A DNA stretch of 64,000 bases from Microthyrium microscopicum (lineage: Eukaryota). This document shows positions 2,965 to 26,826 of the stretch, piece by piece (the stretch's first letter is position 1; every line of letters begins with the position of its first letter). The notes beneath the pieces are model-generated. The model had not been told where the DNA came from. It made no database searches and saw only the letters and a list, made by a program, of their open reading frames with translations. Where the stretch lies: the NCBI GenBank assembly GCA_010405405.1, contig MU004232.1, positions 1,693,481 to 1,757,480 on the forward strand, in the 5' to 3' direction. The translations under genes and the position numbers were made by a program.

Positions 2965-5020
2965 CCGTCACACTCAATCTGCAGTAAACGGGCCGACTAC
3001 CACACGGCGGGCACCCCCCACCTCTCTGCCGGATCATTGGGATTCTTTTGCACGCGCAAACCGCATCATGTTGCCGGTTCTTGTGCCCAGTCCCGTGGCA
3101 GAGTCTGGCACATACCTGTCAGTACCAATAATTGTGCCGATGATTAGGCCGCTCAGTATTCACTTAAGCTTCGAGAAAGCTGTGCGTCGTGCAGCTGGCA
3201 ACCGCAGTGCCGCAGGGGCAAACCCACCATTCGATAGTCCCAGACTGGCAAGTTTTACGAAAAGCGAGTTTTGACAAGTAATTCTTTTTTGACATTTAAC
3301 GCGTCGCGACCAATGTCCGGCTTTCTTCAGCGCTGATGGGCATTTCCTCGGCGTTTTATTGGCTGCTTATTTCCCTGATATTTTATTTTTATTTTTTGGT
3401 CGAATCTGTATGGGGGCGATTTTTTACAAACCTGATACCTGTAACTTGCGGATATTTTTTTTCTTGTTTTGCGGATGATACACCCAACCTTATCCGCTAC
3501 CTCTTTCAGTCATCTATTGGTTGGTTTTGGCGCAAAATATCGCATCGTTTTTACTCGTTTTGCTGGAGGGTTTATATACATCCTACTTGCCTTTATTCGT
3601 AGTGTCTTGTTAAAACATATTCTCGCATGTGGTTCCTAGGCAGGTCTCCTTGGACCAGTTGGTGGCGTTAACTTTTCAATGGGCGGTTTGAGACGCAGAT
3701 CTTGTGGGATTAGGTTGTAGTTGTAGTGTTTTCTTTGTTCACGGATTGTGGACGAATGAAAGTTGATTGAATATGTCTACATTTTACTAGTCGAATGACA
3801 AAGCTTGAACTGTGTATACATCGCCACTGGTTATCGCCCTGTGCCGTAGGCCATATGTTGGTTGTGGTCATCTGCTACTTTTGTACGTACTATGTATGCA
3901 CAATGCGGTTCCTTTGACCGGTTCTACTGGGCGGATTTGGTAGGATTTGCGGGTACCTGGCGGAGATATAAATCTGAATCCTTCACGAAATGCACGGAAA
4001 GTTGTTGCTTCGCTATCGGATGGATATTGCTGGGAGGCTCGTTTAACAGGTTCAACACGGTCAATTTATAACGCTTCCATCTATTCTATCAAAATTCGCG
4101 CTCACAACGCTTCATATTTAACCTCGTCCATCAACGCTCTTAGATCATCCCATATCAGAGCCAAAGATGAATATCTTCTAGTCAAAATAGGCAAAAACAA
4201 GCCAGCCAAACAGACAAAAGTCACTAGTTACATTGTTTCTAATTGGCGATCGACTGCATGTTACTTGCTTCGCAAATGGGACCCAACTTGGAGGAGTGCA
4301 GTTGCAGAACTGTTGCAGTGTGTGTGCATTAGGTCCCTGGAAAGCGGCTGCATACATGTATGCAGTCCGCTCGAAAAACGCCCAACACGAACATTTGCTC
4401 TGACGGAAGGATTTTTTTTGAGGCGGTTGCTTGGTTGTTGTTGTTGTTGTTGGGATTTTCGTCTACGTTAATTTGTGAAATGCATTTCAACAATAGGGTT
4501 GGAGGTTGGAAAAGGACGCGGCCCGTTTGCGGTTGAATGTGTTGATACTAGGTTGGTTTTCATAGGTTGGTTTTCAATGTTGCGTTCGTGATGATGGTTT
4601 TGTGAAAGGGTTGGGTGATTGGAGATGATGCTGCTATCCTTGCGTGGTTACTACTGCGGGGAATTGTGGTCAAGTTTGGATGGGCAGTGACCGGAGGTGG
4701 TATCGTGTATGACGGAAAGTTGAGTTTATACGCGGCTCTGCTTGCCTGGGTTGGTGGTGGATTCTGTTGATTGGAGTCTGGGCGAGGTGTTTGCTGGCAC
4801 AAATGTTGGTTTCACGACATGAGGTTTTTGATATCAGGCGAGCTGTCAGCGTTAGTACTAGTCGGGATGTATGATATCAGAAGATGCTTTATTAGCAATG
4901 GCGTAGGAGAGTCAAAATTGTCTTGGTAGACCTCAGTAGTCGTGGTGGTTCAGTCGGACTGAGAAGTTTTGATTTTAGCTGGGACAACTTGGTTACCTCT
5001 ATTACTCCGCTACTACGCGT

Positions 5021-5262
5021 TGATAGCTAGATTACTAACCCATGGTCCTTAGCACTGCACGGACCCAATGGCGCGAACTACGTCTAAAGGCACAGAAATA
5101 GGCAAGATCTTAACTTACTTTAATTATTAAGATATACGTTATATAGCTAAATTAAGTACGTCTTTTATATCTAATTTATATCCTCTTATCTTCTAAATTC
5201 TATAACGTATATTTAAATATATAATAGAAGCGCTAGCCTATTTAGAGATTTATATATAATTA
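5021..5262 (+). repeat. 5' LTR (242 bp)
   Basis: tgatagctagattactaacccatggtcc...tatatataatta aligns without gaps to 20746-20987; the differences inspected are C/T or G/A transitions. Confidence 0.95.
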
Positions 5263-5265
5263 AAT

Positions 5266-5283
5266 TAGGGGCTAAATTATAGA
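5266..5283 (+). promoter_or_regulatory. Putative primer-binding site, possibly tRNA-Pro type (RIP-mutated)
   Basis: taggggct begins 3 nt after the 5' LTR and reverts to TGGGGGCT with one RIP change, matching the start of tRNA-Pro PBS sequences. The remainder is too mutated to check. Confidence 0.45.
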
Positions 5284-5999
5284 ACTTCTAAACTTTATAT
5301 AATTAAGTAATATAATTAAATAATAAATAATAAGTTTTAATAATAAATAAGCAATTTAAAAGATAACAAATTAATATAGAACGAATATTAGCTATAAGCT
5401 AATAGAAAGTAAATTTAAATAATCTAACATACTTATAGTAGCTAATATAAAATAATAAATAGCTATAGATATTATTAAACTATTAGGTATACCTAAAGCA
5501 TTAAATTTAAATTAATAAATAATAATTATTTATAAAGAATATAGTAACTATTAAAATATAATAAGAAAGTAAAAAATAACTAAGCTAGCTAAATATTAGT
5601 ACTCCTATTACTATTAGTTTAACTATATACTTTTAGAATAGTTCTTACTATATAAAATAATAGTTCCTATATACTATAAGGATATATAGCTATATACTAG
5701 TTATTTATAGTAAGTAGTATAATTTTTAATATTATAGTTAATTTTCTAGCTAGAATAGAGTTACTATTAAACTTATAAATAATACTATAATTAGATTACT
5801 AGTAAGCAAAATTTTTAAATTTACGTAAGTTTAACTATTAAGCTATTATTTTATAATTTAGGCTTACTATTATAACTTCCTTATTAAGGGCATCTTATAA
5901 ATAAGACTTCTTTAGGTTAGATTATTTATTAGCTTATACTTTTACCCTATAACTACTAGACTAAGATTAGAAGCCTTAAGGACTTCTTCTTTTCTTAAT

Positions 6000-8900
6000 C
6001 TTTATTATTTTTATCTATTATACTTTTTATATATATTATTTTATACTTATTAATTTAATTTAATACTATACTACTTTACCTTTTAAAATTAGCTTTAAGA
6101 AACTTCTTACCTCTTATTACTATTATAGCTAGCTTATTATTTTAAATAGTATAAGAATAAATAGAAAGAAAGAGTTATTTAGCTTAGATTAAAGTTATTA
6201 ACTATAGTTTAAAAACTATTAATAAAATTTATTACTTCTCTAACCTAGTACTCCTATTTAAGAAAGAGTATTATTAGCTCTATTAGACGTTAATCTCTTA
6301 ATAACTACGCCTAGAAGGCTTTTATAGATTCTATTATTATTACTAATAGAAATCTAAGGCTCTTATATATCTATTTTACTAAATATACCTAAGTTTTTAT
6401 TTTTTAACATTATAGTAATTAAGGCTACTTACTCTTTTAAAATCTTTTATAAATAATACTAATAGTATACTTTATACTACTTTAAGTAGAACTTTAGCCT
6501 ATTAGCTAAAGTTAAAGTATTAGCGTCTCCTAAAAGATCTCCTTTAGTTTCTTCTCCTAAGAAGAGGAAATAATTATCTATATTATTTATTTTAGATAGT
6601 AAATTTAATAAATAATTCTTTACTACTTCTTCTATTATAAAAGATTAAGGCAGTATCTATATTATAAGCTAATATAGTAATTTAGATTTATTAATTTATT
6701 TATTTACTAAATCTACCTTAATTAATAAATTTAATAGCCTCTATAATTAAGATATTTAGGCTTATACTAATAGTTATTATTAATTAGCTAAAATCTTACT
6801 TTATAGTAATAGTTTTAATTAAGGTTTTAATAAAGAGATTAAAGACTTAAAAAATAAGGTTACTAGAAGCTTTATAGTTACTAACCTTACCTTACCTATT
6901 TAGGAATAGAACTAAGTATATAATATTACTTAAGGCTATATATATAATAACTTTATATAAATTTTAACTATTAAGATAAATAGATAAAATTAAACGCTAA
7001 TCTCTAATACTTTAAAAAAAGCTAAGACTATAGTTAAAGAAGCTATACTTATTAATAATTATATTAATAAGTTTTATAATCTTTCTTATATTATTAAGAA
7101 ATTATATAATTAGAATATTTATTCTAATATAGTTTATAACTATAGAAAGATAACTATAGTTAACTATTACTCTAATTAAGTAAAGTACTATAATATTACT
7201 TTTAAGAAAGCTATAAAGTTTATTACTTATGTCTTTAATAAGGCTTACTTACCTAAAAAAGTTAAGATTAAAGACTAATTACGCACTAATTTATAAATCT
7301 AAGATCTAGTTAATTTATTAAGATAAGTAGTAATAATACTAACTCTAGCTTTATAACTATAGCTAAGATAAAATTATTCTTAAAATAATTAGAATATTTA
7401 AATAGATAATTTTTAGCCTCTATATAACTAGAGTAGCTAGCTTAACTAGATAAGAGGCTAGTAGGGATATATATAGCTTTAGTAATAGTATTAACTAATC
7501 TATTCTTAATAAGGACTTAGAAGCTACCCTATATAGCTAGCTAATAATAAATAATAATACTAAGAAGATCTAAATCCTTTAATATTAGCTTTACTTATAC
7601 TATAAAGAGTTAGCTAGCTAAGACTTTCTAGTAATACTTATAACTATTTAGATAATTAGAACTAATTAAGTTATTATAATTCTTATAGTATTAGTAAATA
7701 CTAACTATTAACTTACTTTAGTTATAGCGTATTAAGTATAAAAAGGAGTAACTATCTAACTTACTATTAGAAAGGACAATCTAATAGCTAATAATAATAA
7801 CCTTCTCTAAACTATTCTACTCTTATAAATCCTCTAGTAATAGTAGTAGTATAAGTATTATAGTAAGAAGTAAATAGAGTTATTAGAGATTATTACCTTA
7901 ATATTTAGAGACTTAAAATTAGGAATAGATTCTATAATACTAATAATAAAGATTAGGAAGAGCCTACTTAGCGTAAATACGTTAATAATATAAATACTTT
8001 TAGTTTAAGCTAGAGTAAGAATAAAGCTAGTAAGTTAACCTTATAGCTAGAAGGTATAGAATTTAAAAATACTACTTTAGCTAATATAGTTAAATATACT
8101 TAATATAATATTAATAATAATAAGGATAAAAATTTGCGCCTTTATAAAACCTAAGCCTAACTAGATAATTAGGACCTAAATATAAATAATAATTTTAAGT
8201 TCCTTAAAGATACTAAGATTCTAAAATTTTAACTCTTTAAAGGAATAAAAGGAAAGAGCTTTATAGATATTACTAAGATCTTACTTAGGCGTCTTATTAG
8301 CCTAAAAGATAGCATTATAATAAAAAATATTATAAATTATTCTCTTTACCTTACTTAATAACTAGGTATAGCATTATAATAAAATAAAATAATCTCTCTT
8401 ATAATTTAGTCTTATAAAGATAAGATCTAATAAGAAAATAAAGCTTAGATAAAGAAGTAAATAGTAATATATAATACCTAGCCTAAGAAAATAATTCCTA
8501 CTACTAAGGAGTATATTTAAAGCCTAATTTTCTTATAAGTAACCTTAGCTAATACTAATTATTACGTATTAATAATAAAAGAAAATTAGATAGATACTTT
8601 AAATATAGTATATAAAGTAAACTTTATAGATACTAATAAGTAATTAATAAAAGCTATTACTAAGAATACTTTATATAGTTATCTAATTCTAGATACTAAT
8701 ATATTAAGATATATTTTCTATACTTAGGTATATATTACTATACTAGTTAGAAAAGAATATATTTTATATAAAGTTTTTCTAAATAAAGACTCTACTATAA
8801 ACCTTATTAATATCTATATAGCTAAAAAGATAGGTCTTAAGAAGTAAGAATTTAAGCTAATATATATTACTTTTATTAGTAGCTTTTAATCTACTCTAAA

Positions 8901-9500
8901 TATAGAAGTAGAGATTATTCTTAATATTAGTAATACTATTTATAGTATTTAATACTATTTTATTCTAGAAATAGTTTACTATAGTATTCTTTTAAGTTTC
9001 TATTAATCTAAAAGTATAAATATACTAAAGTAAAGTAAGTATAGGCTTTCTATAATAGTTAATAAAAAGAATTATTAAGTTACCCTAGATTTTTATTATT
9101 ATAATAAAATAAAGAGAGAAGAGCCTAAAATATAGGTTACCTTAAGAAATTTACTTCTCTAAGTAGATAAACTTATTTTTTTAATTTATAAATTAGTAAA
9201 GGAAGTCCTCTTATAATTTCTATTAATAGTTTAATAGATTAGCCTAACCTTAGATACTAAATATTATACTTACTTAATAAATAATAAAGAACTAATAAGA
9301 ATTATAAATAAAGTTTATTAATAAGTCTTAATCTAAAACTTAAGTAAAGAGAATTATAAAGCTATAAAGGCACTATTAATTAACGCTTTAGAGTTAACTT
9401 AAGATATATTAATAAAGGTTATTTAATAACTTTTAAAAGTACTTTGCTAATAGATACCCTAAAGACTACTAACATACCTAAATATATAAAGCCTTATATA
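6000..9500 (+). pseudogene. gag: RIP-decayed gag-protease ORF (frame +1); ends approximate
   Basis: Frame +1 is codon-like throughout (e.g. SSPKKRK near 6550). Cys cluster at about 7711-7765. Aspartic-protease-like motif at about 8773-8808: gtt ttt cta aat aaa gac tct act ata aac ctt att, de-RIP VFLD(G)GSTVNLI. Confidence 0.65.
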
Positions 9501-12500
9501 TATACTTTATTTATAAAATATACTTTTACTATAGATATAATATATAGTATAATTATAGAATATATAAGCGTTAGTAGTCTTAAGTTTAGAAAAAAGAAGG
9601 AAATTAAGTAAAAGATTAGTTCTAAAGATTATATTAACCTTAATAATATTAACTATAAAGAAATATATAATTATAAGTCTTATTTAAAAGTAGTATACTA
9701 AGAATATTTAATAAATTTATATAACTATTATTTATACTTATCTTCTTTTTTTATAATAACTTAAGCCTACTACCCTAATAATTTAGTAATATAAGGAATT
9801 TCTAGTTATTTAATATAAATCTTCTTAGACTTTTTACTTAGCTAGAGAGTTTAATTATAATAATATTTATTATCTATACGTTTAAGTATACTAAATAAAA
9901 TAGACTTAATTAAGAGAATATATTTAAACGTAGACAAGTTATTATCTAAAGAAAAGTCTTTAATATAGCTTAGAGTATACCTAAATAAATAAAAAGAAAG
10001 AAAATTATAATATATAAGATAATAAAAAAAATTACCTATAATATATTTAATTATAAAGCTTCTAGAAAGCTTAAGTATTAACTAGCTAATAGTTATTTTT
10101 TATAATTAGGATAAATAATTAGTAAAGGAAGGCTATATATAGTTAGTTACTAAAGAACTTCTTTATAAAGTAGAATTTAGTAGTATTAATTTTAAGCCTA
10201 AGAGTGCTCCTATTCTTTTAAATATAGCTAAAAAAGATATACTTATAAAGAAGTTAAAGAAAAACTTATTATAAAATCCTTATTAAGACCTTATATATAT
10301 ACTAAAAGATTAGCCCTATATTAACTTACTAAAGGCATTACTTATAAGTTTAAGTATATTTAATCCTTTATAGAATTTAGTATATTAAGAACTTCTTATA
10401 TTAGGACTAAGTAATACGTAGTATTTATTTATTAAATAAGCATTCTTATATAAATATTACTTAGAACTTATTACTAATAGTTTAAATATACTCCCTCTAT
10501 TATTTAAAAAATTAGGAAAAAGAGGAATAGAAGATTAGTTATAAATTCTAATCTTTTCTTTAATAAAGAAAGAGTTAAATATATAAAATAGATAAATCTC
10601 TACTACTATTAGTTTAAATATACTATTTCTAAGAGTTAAGGAAAAATCTACTTAATAAAAGGATTTAATTACTTAAGCTTCTTTACTTAATTCTACTATA
10701 GATTTAGTAAAGTAATTAGAAATATTATAAAACTATAAAAGTAATATTTCTATTATAAATCATAGAAATAATTTAAGCTTATTAAATTAATAAGATCTAA
10801 TAGATGCTACTATATTAATAATATTAGGATTAACTAATAACCTTAATATAAAATATTCTACGCTTAAGGCTATTTAAACTATATAGCTTAGCTTAAAGAA
10901 CTTATAAAGAAAAGGATAGTTTCTTTCTAAAGAACTTAAAAAACTAGTATAGAACTATATATAGGTAGTAAGTATATATTATTTAAAGTATTAAAGAGGT
11001 ATAAAGATTTTAAGATCTTTAATAATTAAAGCTTTTTAAAACTTATTACTATAATATAATTTAAGTAAAGGAAAGAATATTAATCTAGAAAGCTAAACTA
11101 CGCCTATTTCTTTAATAATAACCTAAATCTTATAAAATTTTCTATAGAATTTTAAGAAGTAGGTAAGTTTTAAATTTAGACTAGATACTAACTTTAAAGA
11201 TAGAATAATACTAGTATAAAAATTAACTTAAGTAATATTAAGAAGGAATAAATCCTAGAAGGCTACTCCTATATATTTAAACTTACTTAATTTATATATT
11301 TTTTAATAGTATTAAAATAAATTAGCCTTAAGATATAAAAACCTATTACTTATATTAACCTATATTATTATTATAAACCCTAACGAAATACTTAAAGGAA
11401 AAGAGGACTATAAGAAGAAAATTAAGAGTCTAATTATACTTATTAGTTTAAATATAGCTTTAAAAATAGATTCTACTTAAGACTTAGAAGATCTATATAT
11501 AATTAACTTTATACTAAATAGGACTTACTTCTAAGGAGAAGAAAAGCCTAGCTAGAGAGAAGCTTCTTTTATTTATAGATTAACTTACGTACTAAAAAGA
11601 ATAAATTCCTAAGATCTTATTATAATAAAGTAGATTCTACTATATTAACTACTTAATAGCTTTTTAGTAAAATCCTTACTAGATAAATATTAATTAATAA
11701 TTAATATAACTAAATTATAAAGAGTAAAGGCACTATTACTAGATATAGTAGTAAACTCTATAGCTAGGAATATAATAAGAATAGGACTAAAATAGTAAAT
11801 TAAATAGCTAAAACCTCTATATCTTAGTAATATGCTATAAGGAATATAGAAATATTACTTTAATAAAATAATTAGTAGAAAAAAGTCTAAATCTATTAAT
11901 ATAGTAATAAAAGATAAAACTATAACCTTAAAAAAGATCTTATATTAAGAGAAAGAGAAGTAGCTTAATTTATTAAAAAAGCGCTATTAATATAAGAAGC
12001 TTTACTTACTTTATAAATCTCTATTAAGAGTTAATAAGGTAAAACTAATTCTCTCTACTAATTTAATACTAGTATATATATATAATAAGATATATAAATA
12101 AGTAGTACTAGGATTTTCTACTAACTACTAGCCTAAGAATTCTTATTACTTAATATTAAATACGCTTAAAGGTATAATTATAGCCTAAATCTTTACTTAA
12201 ATTAAGGCAAGCTTAGGCTTTATTAATAGTACGCTAATAACTAGTACGTAGTAGAGAAAACTTTACTACGTATTATATACTTAAAGAGATCTTTTTACTA
12301 AATTATTAAAGTATATTTAGATAATAGATCTTATTATATATTATATTCTAACTTATTTAAAAGCTATACTAAAAGTAATACTACTTAAGATTCTAATAGA
12401 GAAAGATAAAGCTTACTAAATAGTAGTTATTTTAAAGCTACTAGAAGTAATAATTATAATATACTATATCTTAAATTAGGCTATAAGAGAATAATTAGTA

Positions 12501-15500
12501 CTTAAGAAAAGATATAAGTATAAGCTTATATAGTCTATAAATAGATAGACCTATAATTTTTAACTAGTTAATATAGCAATTATTAAAAGCTACTATTTAA
12601 TAAAGTAGAGTAAGCCTATTCTTAATAAGCTTTATAAGCTTAACTATAAAATATTTTTTAAGATAGATATAGCTAATAGATACTAGTTAGTAAGTATTTA
12701 TATAAATAATATTTATAAAATAGCTTTTAATATAATATATAGTTAAATAGTCTAAACTTAGATAAAATAAAGACTAATAAATACTTATAAGACTTATTAG
12801 AAGTTAAAAGATTTTATATTTAGTCTTATACTAGCTCCTAGCTTAGAACTTTTACTTCTAAACTATTATAATAAAGTTATAGTAGTTAACTTTATAAATA
12901 ATAATATAGGAAGTATAAAAGATATAAATATAATAATTAAGTTTTTATATAAATATTACTTTCCTTATATAGCTTAGGTAAAGCTTATATTTAACTTAGA
13001 TAAATATTCTTTTACTTACCCTTTAATCTATATTTTAGGTATATAAATAGGTTAGGAAGGAATTAAACTAGATAATATTAAAATTAGAATAATTATAAAA
13101 TATCCTATACTTATAAACTAAGAATAAGTTAAGTAATTTAATTATATATTACTATTTTTATAAGATAGAATTCTTAAGTAATTAAAATTAACTTAGATTC
13201 TTAAGAGAGCTACTATAGTAATTAGAAAAAGAGTTTAGAACTTAATTATATAAAAGTATTAAATATAAAAGGAAGTTAGATTCTTTAAATAGAAAGTAGA
13301 GTAATAGGAAGTATTCTAAAGAATAAAAGACATAATTACTATAAAGACTAAGAAAGGTAAAGATCTAAATCTATAATACTACCTTAGTACTAATATATTT
13401 AAGATAGAATATAGTAGATATTTATTCTAGCTTTCTAACTACCTTCTAAGAGTTATAAGAAATAAAGTTTTTATTAAAGAATACTCTTTAATTCTATTTT
13501 ATTTAGCATAATTCTTAGATACTAAGAAAAACTATAAAACTATAAAGAAAGAAGTACTAGCCTTATTAAAAGTAGTAAAATATTTAAGTTAGCTCTTTAT
13601 TAGTACCTAATTTCTAGTAATAATCTATACTAACTACTTTACTATTATTTAAATTATTTAGAGAAATATAGTTAGTATAGCTTAAACTACTTCTTAGAAG
13701 TAATAACTACTTAAGTATAATCTAAAAATTATATATATTCCTAAAAAAGATATTACTATTATAAATAAATTATTTTAAGTTAGTAACAATCTAGCTCTAT
13801 ATAATATTAAAATATATAAAGCCCCTAAAGTTAATATAGTTACTAATAAATTTAGAACTTTTCTTAAATATTTATATTTTTAGGAATTAGAAAGTAAGAA
13901 CCTTTAGGAGAAGATAAATAAAGATTTTAAGTCTTAGAATAACTAGCTAATAAATCCTTAGTATAAAGAGAAGGTTTTCTTTCTCTTAACTAAATAAATA
14001 TAATAAATTTTAGAAATAAGTAAGAATATACTTAAATAAGTCTAATAAAAGCTAATATATTAAGTAAAGTATTTTTAACTTATCTAGAAACCTAAGCCTT
14101 ACTTAACTTATTATAAGAGAAATAAAGAGTTAGCTTATTACATTCTTAGTAATTAGCTTTATATAGTACTTAAAAGAACTTATAATATATATAGATATTA
14201 GGTAGTAGATAGAACTCTTTAGTCTATTATTAGAAGATATTATTAGTCTTTATAAATTTAGAATATTTAGTAATATACTTAGGAATATCTTACTTATTAA
14301 CTATCTAGACCTAAGTAGTATACTAAGAATCTAACCTTAATTTTATAGCTATAACCTTAAGACTATATTTCTTTTAACCTACTAAGTTTAATCTTCCTAA
14401 TATTAAAAAAGAAAAATAGATACGTTATAGTCTTTTAGGACTATACTATATAATTCCTTACTAGTAGAGCTATACTAAAATATAAAAATATTTATATCTA
14501 GAAAGTATTCTATAAGAAGGTTCTTTTATAAGCTAAATATCTACTAACTACTTTCTTAGATAATAGTGCTTAATTCTAAGATAGAAAGTTTATAAATAAG
14601 CTTAAGCTTAACGTAGTAAAGATATTCTTTAGTTCACTATATTATTCTTCTTCTACTAGTTTTATTAAAAAGCTAGTCTATATAGTTAAGGTAAGAATAG
14701 TTAAATATATTCTTAATTATTCTAAATAGCTAAAATATTAGTATAAAGTAGTAGACTAGTAGTTTAAAATACTAGCAAGTAGACTATTAAAAGTAAAAAA
14801 ATATATATCTAAAATACTATTATATAGATTTTAACCTTAAAGAATATAGGACTTTATAATTAATAAGAAACTTAGATAATTAGTAATAGATTTAAGTTTA
14901 TAAGAAGAAGTTACCTTATTAAGGCTTAATACTATAGCTTAAGTAAATTAGATAGTAAGGCTAGCCTAGCTAAATAAAATTAGGAAATACGCTATAAAAA
15001 ATTACTTTACTAAAGTAATATAATACCTTAGCAAAAATCTTCTAGTAAGTAATAATAATATAGAGCTAGGAAATCTAATACTTATAAGGAAAGTCTACCT
15101 AAATAAATAAAAGAGCTAAGCCTTTTAACTATAATAAGCTAAGCCCTATATAGTAGAGTTTCTTAATAATAATAGCTAAATAGTTATAATAAAAGGAATC
15201 TTCCTAGGTTAAACTTATAAAAATATATAATAATATCTAGATAATCTAAAGATCTATCTAAAAAAGAAGGAATCTTCTTAAATCCTAAGGGATTTAGAAA
15301 AATAGATAAAAGAATTATAAAGTAATATACCTATTTAGTAGAACGTATTAAAATAAGAGTAGCTACTAAAGTTTAAAGAGCTTAAAGATAAGGAAGTTCT
15401 TAAATAAAGATAAGAGTAGTTATAAAGATCTAAATAATCTAGCCTAAATAATAAAGAGGATAATAACTTAGAATATTAGTATTATTATAAGTTAGATTTA
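9500..15500 (+). pseudogene. pol: RIP-decayed pol ORF (frame +3): RT, RNase H, integrase; ends approximate
   Basis: De-RIP motifs in frame +3. RT: DAANGYW (12666-12686), FGPIPAP (about 12820), FMDD (12891-12902), LTFNPDKC (about 12985). RNase H: TDASKTG (about 13388), TEKEALA (about 13540), IYTDH (about 13623), HVPGKDIAIADGLSR (about 13735-13780). Integrase: HDVHGHW...YYWP...CxxC (14181-14300), FDLLGP (about 14375), DNGAQF (about 14560), PYHPSSTGFIEK (about 14635-14675). Confidence 0.88.
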
Positions 15501-16322
15501 AATAGAGCAAGTAAGAAAGTTTATAAAATAAGATTAGTATTTCTATATAATAAGCTATTAGATATATTTAGCTCCTAAGGCGTAGGTTAAATAGGAATTA
15601 TAATAAGTAAGTTACTAATAAGGGTAGCTAACTAGCAAAATATATATCTATTATTAAACTATTACTCCTATCCTATAAAGAGACTTAAATTATATAATAA
15701 CTAGACTAAAAAACTAGTTAGAAAAAAATCCTAGCTTAGTAAATTACCTATACTTATCTATTTAAAGATAGAGCTAGTAGGCTATTTTCTACTTTAATAG
15801 ATTATTAAGAAATTTCTAGACTATAGGAAGTTAAACTACTACTATTAGTTTAAATATACTATAATAAATATTAAAATATAATATCTTTCTTTTATAATAT
15901 ATAATTTAGAATATTACTTTTTAGATAGATAGCTAAAATAATACTAGGTATTATATAAAGAAGTATTTATTCTATAATACTACGCCTTATAGAAATATAG
16001 AAATACTATATATATATTTACTATAAGTTTAAATATACTTTAACGTACGCTATAATAAGATAAATCCTAAGTACCTAGAAAACATAATAGACTATACTTA
16101 TTTATTTAATAATAGGGCTATAAAGTACCTAATAAAAATAGAACCTAGGTATAAAATAATATAAATACTTTATAAAAACTTATAGAGAAGATAGAAGATT
16201 AATAGATCTTTTATAATGTAACCTAGGATAAGGTATTCTTCTATAAGACTAGATATGCCTAAAATAACTAAGAGTACTATTATTAGTTTAATAATATTTT
16301 AGTAAAGAAGATTATATTTCTA

Positions 16323-16443
16323 TAATAAAGAAAGATATTCTAAATATAATATTCTAAGAGATATATAAATATTCCTATGCTTCTAATAAAGGAAGATATT
16401 CTAAATATAATATTTTAAGAAGTATATAAATAACCCTATACTC
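16323..16443. repeat. Two-copy tandem repeat, 61-bp period, inside the retrotransposon
   Basis: taataaag(a/g)aagatattctaaatataatatt(c/t)taaga... starts at 16323 and again at 16384. Confidence 0.85.
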
Positions 16444-17249
16444 TTATTAGTTTAAATATAGTACCTTTATATTATAAATATTAATAGATTTATAATTAGC
16501 TAGGATACTATTTAATATCTATAGTTTAGCTAAACGTAGTAATAAAGATTCTTAAGAAGAGCTATAGTAATATATTTTCTTAAAAAAAGCTATATAGCTA
16601 ATTTAGGCGCTATTATACTTTTAAATATACTATTTCTAACTAGGTAAGATATATATAGAATTCTACGTAACTTAGAGAATAAAGTTAACTTTCTATATTA
16701 TCCTAGAAATCTAATAATAACCTTTATTATCTATAGGATAGCTTAGCTATAAAATCCTAATACTTTATACCCTTATCTATTTAATAATAGCTTTTTCTTT
16801 AGAGTTATATAATAAGAATTTAGATATATTAAATTAAGGAAGTTAGATTTTAATAATATACTTATAAAGGAATGTAATTAATACTAATAAGTAAATAAAA
16901 GTCTAATCTAATAACGTAAACCTTTAAAAATTTAATAACTTAGAAGCTAGCTTTAGATCTCCTACTATAGAAGATAAAGTTACTACTTCTATATATTTAA
17001 ATATAATTAAAAGCTTCTAATTTTAGAAGCTATAATTACTTCTTAAGAAGGCTAGTAAAGAGTTAATAAAATATTTAGCTTTAAAGATCTAAGGATCTAA
17101 GTATAACCTCCCTAAGTAGGTATTAATATTTAATTAAAGAAGAGATAAATTATTTACTTATTAATATATATTCTACTTCTCTAAATTAGATTACTCTATT
17201 TTCTTTATACTATACTTTATAATAAAATATTCTAAGATTATAAGAATAG

Positions 17250-20200
17250 ACACTATATAAAGATATATTAATAGATTTTAGTATTATTATTAAAAATAGT
17301 AGATTTAGTAGATACTATTAAGTAATAATAACTTATATTAAAAACTAACGTAGTACTTTAGCTAGAAAATCTCTTAAAAAACTTCCTAGAAAGCTTATTT
17401 ATTAAACTAAGTATAAATAATAAATAATTACGAAATAATTACTATAATTCTATATATAAAGCATAAAAGGTAGCTAACTTAACTTATTTATATTTAGCAT
17501 AATATATATAAACTAAAAAGTATTTCCTAATAACTAACTCTAGCTTAAATCTAATTAAAGAATATAAAGAAAAGTATTAATTAGTAAGAGAAATAGACGT
17601 AGGTAATTAAGCTTAGTAAGAGAAAGAACTAAATATTCTAAAATATAACTAGCTAAATTATAATAAGTAGGTAGCAAAACTTAATAATAAGTAGAAGCTA
17701 GAGAAGATAGTAAACTATCTTAAGGAAAAGATCTAGTAAAGACTAGCTATTCTTAGAATAATAGATAAAGAAAAGTAGGATATTTAAGATTTAGTAAATA
17801 AATTAAATAAGGTATAAAAGTATCTTAACCTACGTTTAAGAGTTCTTATCTAATATAAAATATTTATATTTCTAGTTTACTAAAGTTAAGTATAAAAGTA
17901 TATAGTTATATACGACTTAGATTCTACTAAACTCTAAGAATAAAAATATATAGATTAAGCTAATATTAAAACTATTTTTAATTAGTAGTAAGCTAATATA
18001 TATAAGTTCTTATATATCTTAAATAATATAAAAGAAGCTACTTATTATACTTAGCTCTATATAGAGAATATAATTTCTTTTAATTATTAACTTAAGATAC
18101 TTAACGCTTAGTATAGTTTATTATTATACTAGTAAGTTAATATAAAAAATAACTTAGAGTTTAAAGATAATAACTCTTCTTTTTAATAAATAGAATACGT
18201 CTTATAAGTATAAGTATATAAAGAAGATAAAAAAGAGCTAGATATTTTAATACCTTAAGGTAAAGTAGCAAATTTAAGAAGGATTAAATAACCTTAATTA
18301 TATTAAGATATAGCTAATTCCTATATAACTATTATAGAATTTTCTATTACTATAGGTAAGTAAAAAGCCTAAGTTTAGGCAAATAGATTACTAGTTAAAC
18401 TAGTAGCTAAATAAGTCTAATTTAACTTAATAGTTATTAGTAAAGAAGATAAGGTTACTTTTAGGCTAGAAACTATTACTATATTCTAAAATCTACTAGT
18501 TAGGATTAATAATCTAATATTACTATCCTTTATATAATCTTTTTTATAGAAAGAGATAGAAAGTAGAGCCTTTTTATTATATTAGAAAGTAGAGTAGATT
18601 AATAGAAATCTAATCTCTTTAGGCTTATCTAATTTAGAAGTAGGATTAAGTTTATTACTAAACTTCTTAATAGAAGATATATATATTACTATATAGGCCC
18701 TTAAAGATACCTAAATATAATAAGAATAACTAGAAAATAAGCTAAAGAAAAAGATAAAACTAAAAATAATATATAGCCTAAATTAGGATAGAGATAAGTA
18801 CTATATACTAAAAGAATAGCTATAGAATTATATAGATAGCAAAATCCTATAAATATAGCTTTATAAACTTAATTTAAAAATTAAATATCTTAAAATAGAC
18901 TTAGGAATTCTATTAGTAGTAGAATATCTCTTATAACTAAAGCTTTTCTTAGAAATTATAGCTACTATTAAAATAATTATATAATACTATATATTAAAGA
19001 AGAATAAAGATAAGATAAGCCTTTAGAAGTTAAATATCTTTATTAAGTATCTAACTTAAGTAAGAACCTAAGTTTAACTTTAATATAACTATAAGATAGC
19101 AAAAGGTTAATTAGTTTATAAGAATTAGGAATACTACTATTTTTTATAATAAGGTTAAATTATAATTAGTAAGCTTCTTTAGATATATATAAGACGCTTA
19201 GAGCTAATTAGACTATTATTAAAATTCTATAAAGTCTATATAAGTAATAGAGTAACCTAAGAACTTATATATAAGAAGAAAAATCTAAATTTTATTAATA
19301 AATTACTAGTACTACTAAATAATACTAAGTACTTTATTTAGTATAAAAAGATTATAAAGCTATTCTATAATACTAAGAGTAAATTTATAGTTACTTCCCT
19401 AGGATAAGTAGTCTAGAATATATTTATTTACTCTAGATTAAGGAGCTTTAACTCTATTAATATTATATATAATAATCTACTTTAGTATTAGTAGAATATA
19501 ATATTTATTATTAAAAATAAGAAAGTTACGTACTAAGACTTAGGACTAGACTATCTTAGAGATACTTAGAAATAGCTAATAGATATAGCTAATAAGGTAG
19601 CTATAACTAAGTTTAATTAAAACTTAATACTAAAATAAGTTTAAAAGTAGATAGCAGAATATAATAAGCAAGTTTAATAGTATATTAAGGCTCTACTATA
19701 AGAAAATAATGCTATTTAGTAGTAATATAATAAACTTATAAATTATATAATAAAGTACTTAGATTATCTATTACTAGACTACTTCCTTAATAACCTACTA
19801 GTTTAACCTACTCTATCTATAGGTAAATATAAAAATAAATAGTAGTATAATAGTAATTATTTACTATAGCTATAAGATTATATAAACATTAACTCTAATA
19901 GTAATTAGATAAATAATAATAAGAAAGATAGTAATTATAATAATTAATTTAAATTTTATACTAATAAACTACCTAAAGAAACTAAGTACTATAGTAAACT
20001 ATTAGATAGTACGCCTTAGTTAATAATAGTATCCTAAAAGAATAATATTATATTTAAAAAAGTACTAGTTAAAATATCTACTTTAATTAATAACTTTATT
20101 ATAAAGAAAGTTATAATAAATAATTAATATAGAGATTATAATAATCCTAAAGAATATAGATACTCTAATAATTTAGAGATTAAATAACTACTTAATAAAG

Positions 20201-20670
20201 TTAGGTAGTAAAATCTACCTATATAATAAGTCTATAATAGTATAATCTAATAAGAAAATATATAGCTTTATAATCTTTAGTTTATATATTATTTAATATA
20301 GTAGGAATATAATTAAATAGACTTCTTATCTTTAGAGTTAGTAATATCTTCTAATATTACGTTACTAACTATTTATAACTTACTATAATCCTTACCTACT
20401 TTATAATAAGATAAAATTAAGGACCTAAATATAAGTACTTATTATCTAATACTACGTTTAATATATATAAAGATATATAAGATTCCTTATAAAGAGAAAT
20501 AGTTTAAAAAGGAATATAACTTATTATTAACTATTTAACCTAAATAAGAACTATCTTTAGATAATATATTAGAGGATAATAAGAAGAAAAGTAAAGGCAC
20601 TAAAGAAGAGAGTAAGGAAACTAAAGGTAGTAAGTCTACTATAACTAATAAAGAAGAAATTAAGTAATAG
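17250..20670 (+). pseudogene. RIP-decayed extra ORF (about 1,100 codons, frame +1) between integrase and 3' LTR; function unknown
   Basis: Frame +1 reads as protein-like codons wherever sampled (17281, 17701, 18661, 19561, 20281, 20581), e.g. EKxVNxLKEKI(Q)(Q)RLAIL at 17701 and KKKSKGTKEESKET at 20581. The in-frame TAA/TAG stops can be explained as RIP of CAA/CAG/TGG/CGA. Start uncertain. Confidence 0.6.
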
Positions 20671-20745
20671 GAAATTTATTAGTAAAAGGTTTATTTATAT
20701 ATAAGGTTAAGATTATATCTTAACCTTTATTATTTATAAAATAGT

Positions 20746-20987
20746 TAATAGCTAGATTACTAACTTATAGTCCTTAGTACTATATAAACCTAATAGTATA
20801 GACTATATCTAAAGGTATAGAAATAGGCAAGATCTTAACTTACTTTAATTATTAAGATATATATTATATAGCTAAATTAAGTACGTCTTCTATATTTAAT
20901 TCATATCCTCTTGTCCTCTAGATTCTACGACGTATGTTTAAACGCACGGTAGAAGCGCTAGCCTGTTTAGAGGTTCATACATAATCA
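20746..20987 (+). repeat. 3' LTR (242 bp)
   Basis: taatagctagattactaac...ggttcatacataatca; same length as the 5' LTR, ends in CA, followed by the TSD copy GCGT. Confidence 0.95.
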
Positions 20988-22422
20988 GCGTCTCCTCCTT
21001 TATCCAACTACATCTATCATCCTATGTAATACTAGTATCGTCCTTTGAGTCTTGCAAAAGAAACACTGAAACCTTGATCCCCCACACTAAGCCTGTCTCA
21101 TATGTATGTATTTCGATGTACCAGAAACAGTAATCAAGGTCCTACGCACGACAGCGATACTCATCATCAGCATTGGAAACCAATGCGCTGTATGATCCAA
21201 CTTCTGATGATGATCTGGTCATTGCAAACAAGGCTACCGTATTCTATAGATGCAGAGATTGAATAATAACTATTCCCCTCGTCGTCTTGTTCTGTTGGTT
21301 TCTTGCTGCCGCATGCTTATCCCGAGACAGTCGCGTCTGCATGCATGCATGGCGGCTGGACTGGACTAGATCAACTTTGGACCTTCTTCTTCACTCTCTT
21401 CCAATTATCTTCATCCTTTCCCTGGAATATTCATCATCATGCCACTAAAATGCCCCGCCTGTAACTGATTCTTGATTCGGGCACTTTCGAAAGGCTCGCA
21501 ATACTCTCTCGGCAGATGTCATGCCTTGATACCTTACTGACGATCCCAACATCCAATCTTGGTCAGCCTGCCTCCAGTGGTCCACCACCCAGGCCTGAGC
21601 AGTGATTTTGGTTGTCCAGACTTCAGACTCGAGATACTCCATAGTCTGCATCCAGAACCAACCTGCAATAGTCTAAATTATGCGCAGGATCCCCCATACA
21701 TGGTATGCTACCAAGAAACCATCCTCGGCATGTTCCTCGAGCTCCATCCTTGTGCTGCTTGCCGTTAAGGATGCACGCCCAAACTAGCTCTCATACCTTC
21801 CTGAGAAGCTAAGCTGTTGCGGTGAAGCCTACGACTCTTAGTTCTAAGGTAGTTGTTTTCGCCCTAGCACTTCCGTTGAAATGGAAGCTCCTAAAAAGTC
21901 GACTCCACTTCCACATAAGCACCTAGAAAAACCAGAGTAATTCTTCTATTTCCCTTGCCTCGACATCTGCATACTCTTCTCTCGCATATCTACAGCTAAT
22001 CTTCTTTCCTCTTTTGCCTATTTCCGACTTCTGCCTCCCTTTCGTTGCCTTCTTCCTGCATACCCAGGGAGCTTATCTTGTATCTGTTCGCCTCGCCGCA
22101 CACGTGCTAAATCAGGGCGCAACCACGTAGCTGTAGCCTTTTTCAGCAAAGACCTCCAGTGACAACAACCAGGTGTTTGATGAGCCTGTGACTCAGTGGT
22201 CGGGTGAGCCAAAAGTTCAAATCAAGATGGCATATTCTGACCACTTCGTCAGAGACCTCCCATTCACTGGGAATTTGGATTGGGTACTATGCGCTAAACG
22301 CTTCATAACTCTGAATTACAAAGTAGTCGTTATCATTACCAACGCAGCTGGATTACAGCCAAAAACTTGTACCTTGGGAAACTAGTTTCGATTTGCAACA
22401 TATCTACGCCTTGCTTGAAGAC

Positions 22423-24456: not shown

Positions 24457-26826
24457 TCAGCTCTTGACAAGCTGATCTTCCTCTCCATCATCGTCACTAT
24501 CTGTCTCTTCGCTATCTGTCTCATATTCTGCGCTCTCACTATCGCTTTCTGTCTCCCCACTGTCCTCTTCTTCATCCTCTTCCTCCCCCTCAACCTCATC
24601 TTCGTCTAGCCACTGATCCAAAGTCTTCGTCGTCCTTTCCGCCCCATTCGACTTTCCACTTCCGCCTCCCACCGGCGTGCCAGAACGCTCCACCATACTT
24701 GTTGGGCGAGATGATACCGAAGCCCCAGCCTCATCACCATTTCTCTCCGCAGCGCCAACCGCAATCGTCGTCCAGGCCGGCACGTTTTGCGCGCCGCGTA
24801 TGTCGATGCCGAGCAGCCAACTAGCCGAGCCAACTGCGGTTTTCCTATCGCTACTAGGTGCTGCCTGCTTTGCCGGATCGTCAGCGCGCGGCGACGGCTT
24901 GGCGGTGAGGAGGAGCAGTGCTGCTAGATCGGTTGATGGCACATCAAGGAGTAGATTTCGAAGGTAACGTGTGCGGTCACGGAGTTGGAAGCTATGTGCA
25001 TAGCGAGCAAGTAGAAAAGTGTGATGAAGCATTTTTACGAGCTGGCTGGTTTCGTCGTCACTATCCAATATTTCTGTGTTTGGCACATCAGTGTTGTCTT
25101 TGGCGGACTTTTCGCGCTCGCGGCGATCGTGTAGATAGACTTTCGCCGCGAGGAGTAAAATCTGACTTTGGACTTCGACAGTCTCGTCAGCAAAGCCTTG
25201 GAGCAAGATGCGCCAGACGTCGGCGGCTATTTGCACACTGCCAGGGGTAGCAGCAAATTCGCCGACAAGCCATATGATTGCGGCGCGGGCTTTTGGTGCT
25301 TTGAGGGCGTCGAGATGTTTGGCTAGACGAACAATAGTCTTGGAATGGGCGCTGGGATCGCGTTGAATGAGGACGCGTATTTCGTCAAGGCTAGCTGCTA
25401 CAAGTGTTGCGTCGGGAGAAGAGAGATGAGTGAGAAGAAGAGCGAGGCATCGACTTCGTAGTGCTGGTGTTGGAGCGGCAGATGCACAGCGCCCGATGGC
25501 AAGGACTGCTGCACGTACCAGGGTGGCATCGGAGGATGATGTGTGATGGGCCAAATCAGTCAAGATCAGGCTGCGTATCGATGTTGAGACATGTGGGAAG
25601 AGGAGTGACAGAATGGTAAGTTTAGTGGTTACGATCAAGGGTGAGTCGCTCGCGCGAAGTAGAAAGTGAGTCGTATATGGTAAGAATGAAGTCGGATGTT
25701 GACGAATGAGGTCAGCAATAGTAGGCAATGCTTGCGAGGCGATGTCTGGTCCGGCTCGTAATATGGACATCAGTGGGCCAGCGAGAAGTGATAGGTAGGT
25801 GGTCGTCCCTAGGTAGAGATAGCATCGCGCAACGGCTATGATGACAGCAGAATTGCGAGATTGAAGAAGAGGTTGAATTGATTTCAGGAGTAATTCCAAA
25901 TCCGGGTCCAGAACAGGAACCTCCACCATTTCTTCGGGTGTGGAAGTTTCTTCATCCTCATAAAAAGCCTTGTTCTTCTTCTCCTCGAGATCTCCTTTTC
26001 GCACTTTCTTGGTCCTCCTGGGAAAACACTTTCGACAATACCGGACCATAAGCTCCAATGTCGAGAGCTGACCCCACTCGTCCATATCAACCAATTTTTT
26101 CACCAATCCTCTCCAGTGTGGATGTATCAGGTCCAATCGCTCAGGACAGACTTCCAGGAAGGCATGTACCGCAGCACCAGCAACATAATACTGACGGTCA
26201 CCCAAGAGCACTCCGATCTGTTCTTCCAACAGCGCACTTTGACTCGGATCCATTCTGTAGCATTTCGGTATAGCCAAAGCCGCCGTCCGTCTGACGATTG
26301 GACTCATATCTCCCGCACCACGCTTAATACCTAGCGCAACAATTTGCGATATCACCGAAACCCGAATTGAGCTCATGGTGCGCAGAGCTAGCGCTCTAGT
26401 CCTCGCATTGGAATCTGACATTCCCTTTTGTATGGTATTAATCGCCAGTAGCGCCGTATCCGGGGCAGCTTCGGCATGCTGTATCAAGAAAGCATATACG
26501 AGCTTCTTGATCTCTGTGTTTGGCGAGGCAATGTTCTTGACCACGGCAGTGAAATAGGGTAGCGCCGATTGATTGCTGTAGAACAGCGCCATGACCCTCC
26601 GTAAGCCATCGAGAACTTCGGCTTCGCGCCTTGAGTCTAGTAATTTCTTGAGAGCGGCAGGTGGGAGAGGGCGGGAGACGGTTCGACGTGAGGCAGCGGC
26701 ATCGCGTGCTGCTTCGAGAGTGAGATCTCGAGCTGTGGGAGGAGCCGTTAGCTTTTGGAACTTGCTTCAGGAGGATCCGTAGGTACCTGTCTCTACAAGA
26801 CTCGATACACGCGACAACGAGTCCAT
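24457..26826 (-). CDS. APL6: AP-3 adaptor complex beta subunit
   Basis: Adaptin N-terminal motifs (VVKNIASPNTEIKKLVY, RALALRTMSSIRV, DMDEWGQ, LDPDLELLL, IIWLVGEF) and an acidic tail. The first exon MDSLSRVSSLVET starts at 26826 and is followed by a short intron. Confidence 0.93.

Follow-up and report, generated by a model that had tools for sequence, protein, structure and literature searches.

What kind of gene, if any, occupies the 3.4 kb between pol and the 3' long terminal repeat (LTR) of a large, heavily mutated retrotransposon in the leaf-litter ascomycete Microthyrium microscopicum? The element lies in a stretch of 64,000 nucleotides (assembly GCA_010405405.1, contig MU004232.1, positions 1,693,481 to 1,757,480 of the forward strand), which we call the window and whose numbering is used throughout. 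A first-pass annotation, made from the letters of the window, had placed a decayed extra open reading frame (ORF) here, in the env position, and had named an env or movement analogue, an anti-silencing factor or selfish cargo as its possible roles. We conclude that this frame, called ORF3 below, is what is left of a genuine protein-coding gene, about 1,140 codons long, after repeat-induced point mutation (RIP) had killed it. On balance, we favour the reading that ORF3 was an integral, co-mobilised accessory or cargo gene of a Ty3/Gypsy-like family and that it was taken up, within a module, where the polypurine tract (PPT) meets the unique 3' region (U3) of the LTR.

A single reading frame persists between pol and the 3' LTR

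The coding blocks that enter the comparison, and the sequence between them, are as follows.

17236..20667, + strand, window frame +1: ORF3, decayed, about 1,143 codons plus stop, start uncertain by about 100 nt; placed by codon score and periodicity.
9201..15750 (bounds approximate), + strand, window frame +3: gag-pol-like coding block, with a codon score that is positive throughout.
15751..17235, no strand: non-coding spacer between pol and ORF3, with a periodicity of 1.3 and no frame above 4.7 bits.

We scored codons with a log-odds model trained on pol (9603-15401). Over 17251-20667 this model gave +113.2 bits in window frame +1 and -18.8 to -169.9 bits in the other five frames, and none of 500 dinucleotide-preserving shuffles equalled the score (shuffle maximum 57.0). 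The reciprocal model, trained on ORF3 and applied to pol, gave +70.7 in the true frame of pol and -177 to -388 elsewhere. The score in window frame +1 was positive in every 450-nt window between 17001 and 20301, position-specific GC content maintained a single phase from 16.5 to 20 kb, and the cumulative codon score was lowest at 17233 and peaked at 20662. The signal-to-noise ratio of the three-base periodicity was 8.2 in ORF3 and 7.9 in pol, against 1.3 in the spacer (15751-17200) and 0.0 in the leader of the element (5263-6500); the maximum among 300 shuffles was 4.07. These values bear out a decayed third ORF on the strand of pol, in frame +1 over about 3.4 kb, as the first-pass annotation had it. 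Its extent was accurate, but a frame that begins exactly at position 17250 is out of phase.

The frame terminates in TAA TAG at 20665-20670, the second stop being the TAG at 20668-20670, and the gap from this end to the start of the 3' LTR at 20746 is 75 nt, the distance that had been reported. The start codon of ORF3 could not be located in the RIPed text.

Could this phase signal be a by-product of RIP on DNA that never held a gene, or a frameshifted continuation of pol? The 126 stops in 1,143 codons speak for such a reading, as do the missing homologue and the missing start codon. However, the codon score is beyond all 500 shuffles, the equally RIPed spacer and leader show no periodicity, and 1.45 kb without any phase separates pol from ORF3. 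Moreover, RIP yields transitions and not frameshifts, and indels among the copies of the element are few (12 shown and 66 further). We therefore consider it very improbable that no gene was ever present. We also rejected a paralogous relation of ORF3 to pol or to the coding block near the 5' end of the element, since BLASTP comparisons of ORF3 with the two gave no E value better than 1.8.

ORF3 and pol carry the same RIP damage

The saturation with RIP that had been described for ORF3 is indeed that of pol. The TA/AT index is 1.60 over 17250-20670, 1.60-1.63 in pol and 0.67-0.71 in the flanks, and the (CA+TG)/(AC+GT) index is 0.049, 0.044-0.078 and 1.29-1.30, respectively. The remaining C stands almost solely before T (461 of 566 in pol, 246 of 302 in ORF3), and the remaining G almost solely after A (551 of 640 in pol, 318 of 366 in ORF3). 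In the true frame, 17251-20670 contains 128 stops (80 TAA, 48 TAG and no TGA); the 126 stops counted among the 1,143 codons of 17236-20664 are likewise all TAA or TAG. The residues Q, W, C and M are close to zero in the present text of ORF3, just as in pol. Both the stop load and the loss of M, W and Q arise because saturating RIP converts CAR, TGG and ATG codons. Every ATG, TGG and CAR codon of ORF3 has been destroyed in this way, and ORF3 is now functionless. The E/K/Q-rich composition noted earlier has to be read accordingly: Q is nearly absent from the present text, so that it was deduced from the stops, and the richness in K, like that in N, is common to ORF3 and pol.

Across 5001-21000, the context of RIP is wider than CpA. 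The dinucleotides CpA, CpG and CpC are nearly all lost, 81% of the leftover C precedes T, and 86-87% of the leftover G follows A.

ORF3 lies between the LTRs and recurs in sister copies

The host element occupies an AT-rich block (5001-21000) with a GC content of 0.18-0.22, compared with 0.43-0.56 in the flanks. The block is bounded by a direct repeat of 242 nt whose copies are 83% identical. This LTR pair with TG..CA ends, together with a short target-site duplication (TSD), marks the element as an LTR retrotransposon, and it represents a single insertion of 15,967 bp.

5017..5020, no strand: left TSD copy, GCGT, read directly; GCGT recurs after the 3' LTR.
5021..5262, + strand: 5' LTR of 242 bp, which begins with TG and ends with TA (read as RIPed CA); from the direct repeat and its alignment.
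20746..20987, + strand: 3' LTR of 242 bp, which begins with TA and ends with CA; from the direct repeat and its alignment.
20988..20991, no strand: right TSD copy, GCGT, read directly.

Public contigs were aligned to 5001-21000 at a minimum likeness of 80%, and the figures below come from the two best runs of one sample, X1 and X2. Contigs of other copies diverge at 5018/5021 and enter different flanks at 20984/20988, that is, at the edges of the element. In total, 986 contig pieces were placed in X2 and 1014 in X1. About 340 in each run were at least 99% alike, and the less alike pieces numbered about 645-675 per run: 182 (X2) and 211 (X1) at 95-99%, 299 and 298 at 90-95%, and 164 and 165 below 90%. 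The differences in X2 were nearly all transitions (A>G 662, T>C 643, C>T 549, G>A 629), with at most 15 transversions per class. Contigs covered 30 of 30 bins of 5001-21000, ORF3 included. In X1, the summed depth was 499-987 across 17283-20486 and 513-1013 across pol; such sums over contigs do not measure copy number, and we take these values to mean that ORF3 is about as repeated as pol. The listed contigs with zero mismatches had a depth of about 100-120. Because the whole 16 kb is covered by copies that diverge by transitions, ORF3 belongs to a repeated, RIP-killed family, and the earlier supposition that it was repeated in the genome was correct.

Of the 17 joints, the 15 shown include none that skips from 16741 to 20745, which would lead from the spacer straight to the LTR. 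In the single run guessed to be RNA, contig cover was confined to the edges of the LTRs. As expected of an accessory or captured third ORF, ORF3 sits between the two LTRs of the element and occurs in its sister copies as well; the contigs are short, and pol and ORF3 were not seen together on a single one of them.

A 24-nt duplication encloses ORF3 in a module

The sequence next to the 3' LTR, at the site where the PPT is expected, has a second copy upstream of ORF3.

16718..16741, + strand: internal 24-mer copy, 21/24 identical; central-PPT-like or the left scar of a module.
20721..20744, + strand: 3' 24-mer copy, with a T-rich box and a purine-rich end; ends 1 nt before the 3' LTR.

The three differences between the copies are all transitions. 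The internal copy is the sole match with at most 4 mismatches in 5263-20720, and none of 100 Markov simulations gave a match with at most 3 mismatches. The two copies enclose a module of 3,979 nt (16742-20720) that consists of about 490 nt without coding phase, then ORF3, and then 53 nt. No terminal inverted repeats were found at the module ends. The duplication can be read as a second site of plus-strand priming, as the trace of an acquisition at the PPT/U3 junction, or as the TSD of a nested non-LTR element.

We also considered whether the internal 24-mer is followed by the remnant of an LTR. Downstream, the first 53 nt of the LTR were matched equally well by 332 of 1927 random segments, and two further comparisons into the LTR were equalled by 623 of 1924 and 1064 of 1909; upstream, over 60 nt, the likeness was equalled by 1821 of 1935. 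A looser local alignment scored below random chunks. The LTR remnant was rejected, since the flanking similarity is at the null level. A third, weaker copy of the 24-mer lies inside ORF3 at 19804-19823 (16 of the 20 bases of its start) and may be due to chance.

In the reading that we favour, the module would have been gained at the PPT/U3 junction, for example by template switching during reverse transcription, and the 24-mer duplication would be the footprint of this event. The gene would then have been copied within the genomic RNA at every retrotransposition. Because 1.45 kb of non-coding spacer parts ORF3 from pol, ORF3 would have been translated from a subgenomic or spliced message of its own.

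Alternatively, the internal 24-mer may be a second plus-strand primer site that served a very long element. A central PPT is known in lentiviruses and in yeast Ty1. The arrangement here resembles theirs in that the sequence adjacent to the 3' LTR has a second copy within the element, several kb upstream; an internal copy of PPT-adjacent sequence, as a central PPT calls for, is thus present, and its priming role is putative. Unlike the lentiviral and Ty1 tracts, the RIPed tract is not purely purine, and it could equally be a scar of recombination or insertion. A fuller version of this idea makes ORF3 an old, family-wide third gene of a giant Dothideomycete Gypsy lineage that arrived together with the central PPT; we regard it as rather unlikely.

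A different history would make ORF3 the ORF2 (endonuclease and reverse transcriptase) of a non-LTR element of the long interspersed nuclear element (LINE) type, or another transposon gene, that was inserted upstream of the 3' LTR in the ancestor of the family, with the 24-mers as its TSD. Direct repeats of 24 nt that exactly flank the module and differ by transitions alone are what a TSD would look like, ambiguous as they are, and the lone ORF, some 1,140 codons long, stops 53 nt short of the downstream repeat. Such a length fits the ORF2 protein of a LINE. The depth in X1 climbs from 499 to 987 toward the 3' end of ORF3, as 5'-truncated copies would give, but X2 shows no such 3' gradient. The expected tail is also missing: 20668-20720 contains neither an A-run nor a simple repeat, and RIP does not remove A. 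Furthermore, the 490 nt or so at the 5' end of the module carry no coding phase and hence no remainder of an ORF1, 24 nt is long for a TSD, and terminal inverted repeats are absent. The searches with ORF3 returned no reverse transcriptase or endonuclease signal, although they are blind at this level of RIP. Taken together, we judge a nested origin to be possible but on the unlikely side. The first-pass annotation had set a match to gag or to the transposase of a nested element, with absence from sister copies, against its own proposal; ORF3 proved to be present in the sister copies, and an insertion in the family ancestor is the form in which that idea remains the main rival.

Searches for the identity of ORF3, with pol as a control

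For the searches with ORF3, RIP stops were read as X. Pfam searches in six frames of 15501-20750 returned no family at E up to 1, a word-indexed protein search returned nothing at E up to 0.01, and phmmer against 1.84 billion representative proteins returned nothing at E up to 0.001. Against the PDB at E up to 10, ORF3 gave 11 chance matches, including eL30 (E 0.48) and monoamine oxidase B (E 2.6). Pattern matches were found in metagenome contigs (591) and in viral contigs (96), and none was confirmed in either set.

The same methods were applied to pol. Pfam gave a sub-threshold RNase H match alone, the word-indexed search gave none, and the PDB search gave none at E up to 1. AlphaFold2, run on the reverse transcriptase-RNase H stretch of pol, produced an all-helical model without the reverse transcriptase fold, at a mean predicted local distance difference test score of 44.6. 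The homology negatives of ORF3 are uninformative because the pol controls fail nearly everywhere too. At the present level of RIP, movement, anti-silencing and cargo roles of ORF3 are indistinguishable.

In a PDB search at E up to 10, the RIPed pol (12303-15701, + strand) gave just two chance matches, 1ztm_A and 8tqk_A (E 0.42-0.43), both of them fusion glycoproteins of paramyxoviruses, and no reverse transcriptase or integrase.

Membrane features and helical periodicity

We examined hydrophobic 19-mers with a Kyte-Doolittle mean of at least 2.0. ORF3 contains 1 in its 1,138 residues, the same rate as pol, and this best 19-mer (2.05) includes E and K. The eight most hydrophobic 19-mers of ORF3 all contain D, E, K or R, and none lies near the C-terminus. 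No uncharged hydrophobic 19-mer was found within ORF3, and a C-terminal transmembrane anchor, as an Env protein would have, was not detected. Judging from the genetic code, changes of C to T and of G to A mostly leave hydrophobic codons hydrophobic, so that a membrane anchor should remain visible; its absence argues against a retrovirus-type Env.

The only segment that resembles a signal peptide lies just upstream of the onset of the coding signal.

17149..17205, + strand: in-frame hydrophobic 19-mer with a Kyte-Doolittle mean of 2.38, a weak signal-peptide lead.

Peaks of at least 2.3 occur at 1.68 per 1000 residues in the six frames of the element, and we estimate the chance of a peak so near the onset of ORF3 at roughly 10%. 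The segment is thus within chance, and the signal peptide a weak lead.

The coiled-coil-like stretches that had been described show a helix-type hydrophobic periodicity at 3.45-3.55 residues. The signal is just modestly above that of shuffled sequences (equalled by 21 of 500 and 2 of 500 shuffles), and ORF3 as a whole is not more periodic in this way than pol.

These features bear on whether ORF3 encoded an env-like, secreted or membrane protein that enabled virus-like spread from cell to cell. Its position downstream of pol on the same strand is that of env, the 19-mer of 17149-17205 sits right before the coding onset, and the two stretches with helix-type periodicity would suit such a protein. 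However, nothing like a transmembrane segment occurs anywhere in ORF3, its C-terminal part included, and by our estimate the N-terminal hydrophobic stretch has the chance expectation of roughly 10% given above. RIPed pol itself gives chance matches to fusion glycoproteins in the PDB (E 0.42), so that env-like impressions come cheaply here, and coiled coils with transmembrane helices are insufficient for an env call (PMC4408406; this source and PMC6431247, PMC5408684 and PMC3248453 are cited from excerpts). The env analogue that had been proposed thus finds no anchor, and we consider the env reading improbable. Most probably, ORF3 encoded an accessory or cargo protein that was soluble and largely helical, and not a membrane-anchored envelope glycoprotein.

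Other features of the element and its flank

A further coding-phase block precedes pol.

6802..9201 (bounds approximate), + strand, window frame +1: upstream coding-phase block in a gag-like position; from codon score and periodicity.

The pol-trained model gave +37.5 bits and the ORF3-trained model +34.2 bits for this block, and the remaining frames were all negative. Its periodicity signal-to-noise ratio of 14.8 is the highest in the element. It has no Pfam match, and the + frames of 5263-8100 gave no family. A leader of about 1.2-1.5 kb without periodicity precedes it (0.0 over 5263-6500). The coding phase of this block, pol and ORF3 sums to about 4,100 codons.

In the pol frame, YINN at 12699-12710 was judged by eye to be a RIPed YxDD motif of reverse transcriptase; Pfam RVT_1 was not found in this frame at E up to 1. 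A sub-threshold Pfam match to RT_RNaseH follows some 260 codons after YINN, at about 13482-13622 (E 0.0028; 18.2 bits against a cut-off of 24.8). The coding phase extends about 2 kb past the RNase H match, and Pfam detected no integrase domain in the pol frame. The end of integrase had been put near 15.5 kb; the position agrees with the plateau of the pol-frame score near 15.75 kb, but the domain itself was not detected.

The spacer contains two tandem repeats just upstream of the internal 24-mer, at 16323-16439 (61 nt x1.9, 89% matches) and 16537-16594 (28 nt x2.1). The 15-mer TAGTTTAAATATACT has 10 matches with at most 2 mismatches between 8595 and 17515, all within the element, and exact copies at 10478, 10610 and 15846; the chance figure of 0.63 comes from shuffles of the whole window and is too low for the AT-rich block. 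No Rfam families or tRNAs were found within the element. In the flank, a host gene at 24460-26766 (- strand) encodes the beta subunit of the AP-3 complex (beta adaptin, Adaptin_N). Over 99% of its length, its product matches, at 100% identity, a protein that NCBI assigns to Microthyrium microscopicum, and its next relatives, at up to 70% identity, are from other Dothideomycetes.

Discussion

LTR elements of plants, insects and rotifers are already known to have extra ORFs downstream of pol. The capture of ORFs in this position has been described, and elements above about 10 kb are traditionally termed giant (PMC6431247). In plants, Tat elements have extra ORFs to which no function is assigned (PMC4408406), and the LTR elements of bdelloid rotifers carry varied types of ORF3, for example a GDSL lipase or a DEDDy exonuclease (Rodriguez, Kenefick and Arkhipova 2017, PMC5408684). 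In fungi, extra domains in Ty1/Ty3 elements were explained as "complex transposons", that is, multiple insertions at one locus (Muszewska et al. 2011, PMC3248453); Figure S1 of that paper, cited there for four complex transposons, may bear on the comparison.

The M. microscopicum element resembles the plant Tat/Ogre elements with their extra ORFs, and Athila with its env-like ORF, in having a separate, family-wide ORF between pol and the 3' LTR of an oversized Gypsy-type element (PMC4408406, PMC6431247). It differs from Tat/Ogre in its ascomycete host, in being a RIP-dead copy and in its short LTRs of 242 bp; the size of Ogre comes largely from long LTRs. It has in common with the rotifer captures that the third ORF is modular, lies downstream of pol and is not necessarily env; the rotifer ORFs, however, have recognisable domains and intact copies, whereas the domain content is unreadable here (PMC5408684). 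Errantiviruses, such as Drosophila gypsy and ZAM, and retroviruses have env in the same position and on the same strand, but ORF3 lacks a detectable C-terminal membrane anchor and detectable homology, in searches that this level of RIP makes blind. Like the fungal complex transposons, the element is of the Ty1/Ty3 type and carries extra coding content. Unlike them, it has propagated ORF3 with itself, as indicated by the one TSD and the even cover in sister copies, and is not a one-off pile-up (PMC3248453).

Our literature search turned up no ascomycete LTR element with a third or env-like ORF and no fungal case of about 16 kb. Among the titles listed for Microthyrium microscopicum, none was that of a transposon study. 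The phrase "16 kb" is absent from the main text of PMC4210507 and denotes a supercontig in PMC3158057, and neither paper bears on the element.

Several points weigh against a co-mobilised gene of a Gypsy-like family. With no homologue by any method, the term "gene" draws wholly on codon statistics. The tentative assignment of the host element to Gypsy goes back to a motif seen by eye and a sub-threshold Pfam match. An unrelated repeat family of similar abundance could yield the same depth picture, and the contigs are short, so that pol and ORF3 are not seen together on one sister contig. Finally, a 24-nt flanking duplication is equally expected from target-primed, LINE-type insertion.

The analysis also has a consequence for other RIPed regions. 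At this RIP level, with a GC content of 0.20, Pfam, phmmer, PDB searches and AlphaFold nearly all miss even the reverse transcriptase, and claims of "no homologue" for such regions therefore carry no weight. A fungal element of 16 kb that has short LTRs and about 4,100 codons of coding phase would enlarge the coding capacity known for retrotransposons of fungi, and one with duplicated PPT-adjacent sequence offers a case for studying how LTR elements acquire genes. If ORF3 were an old third gene accompanied by a central PPT, the element would have a retrovirus-like plan, with gag-pol, an accessory gene and two plus-strand primer sites, which is so far undescribed for ascomycete LTR elements, and its intact relatives would reveal a new class of retroelement accessory protein.

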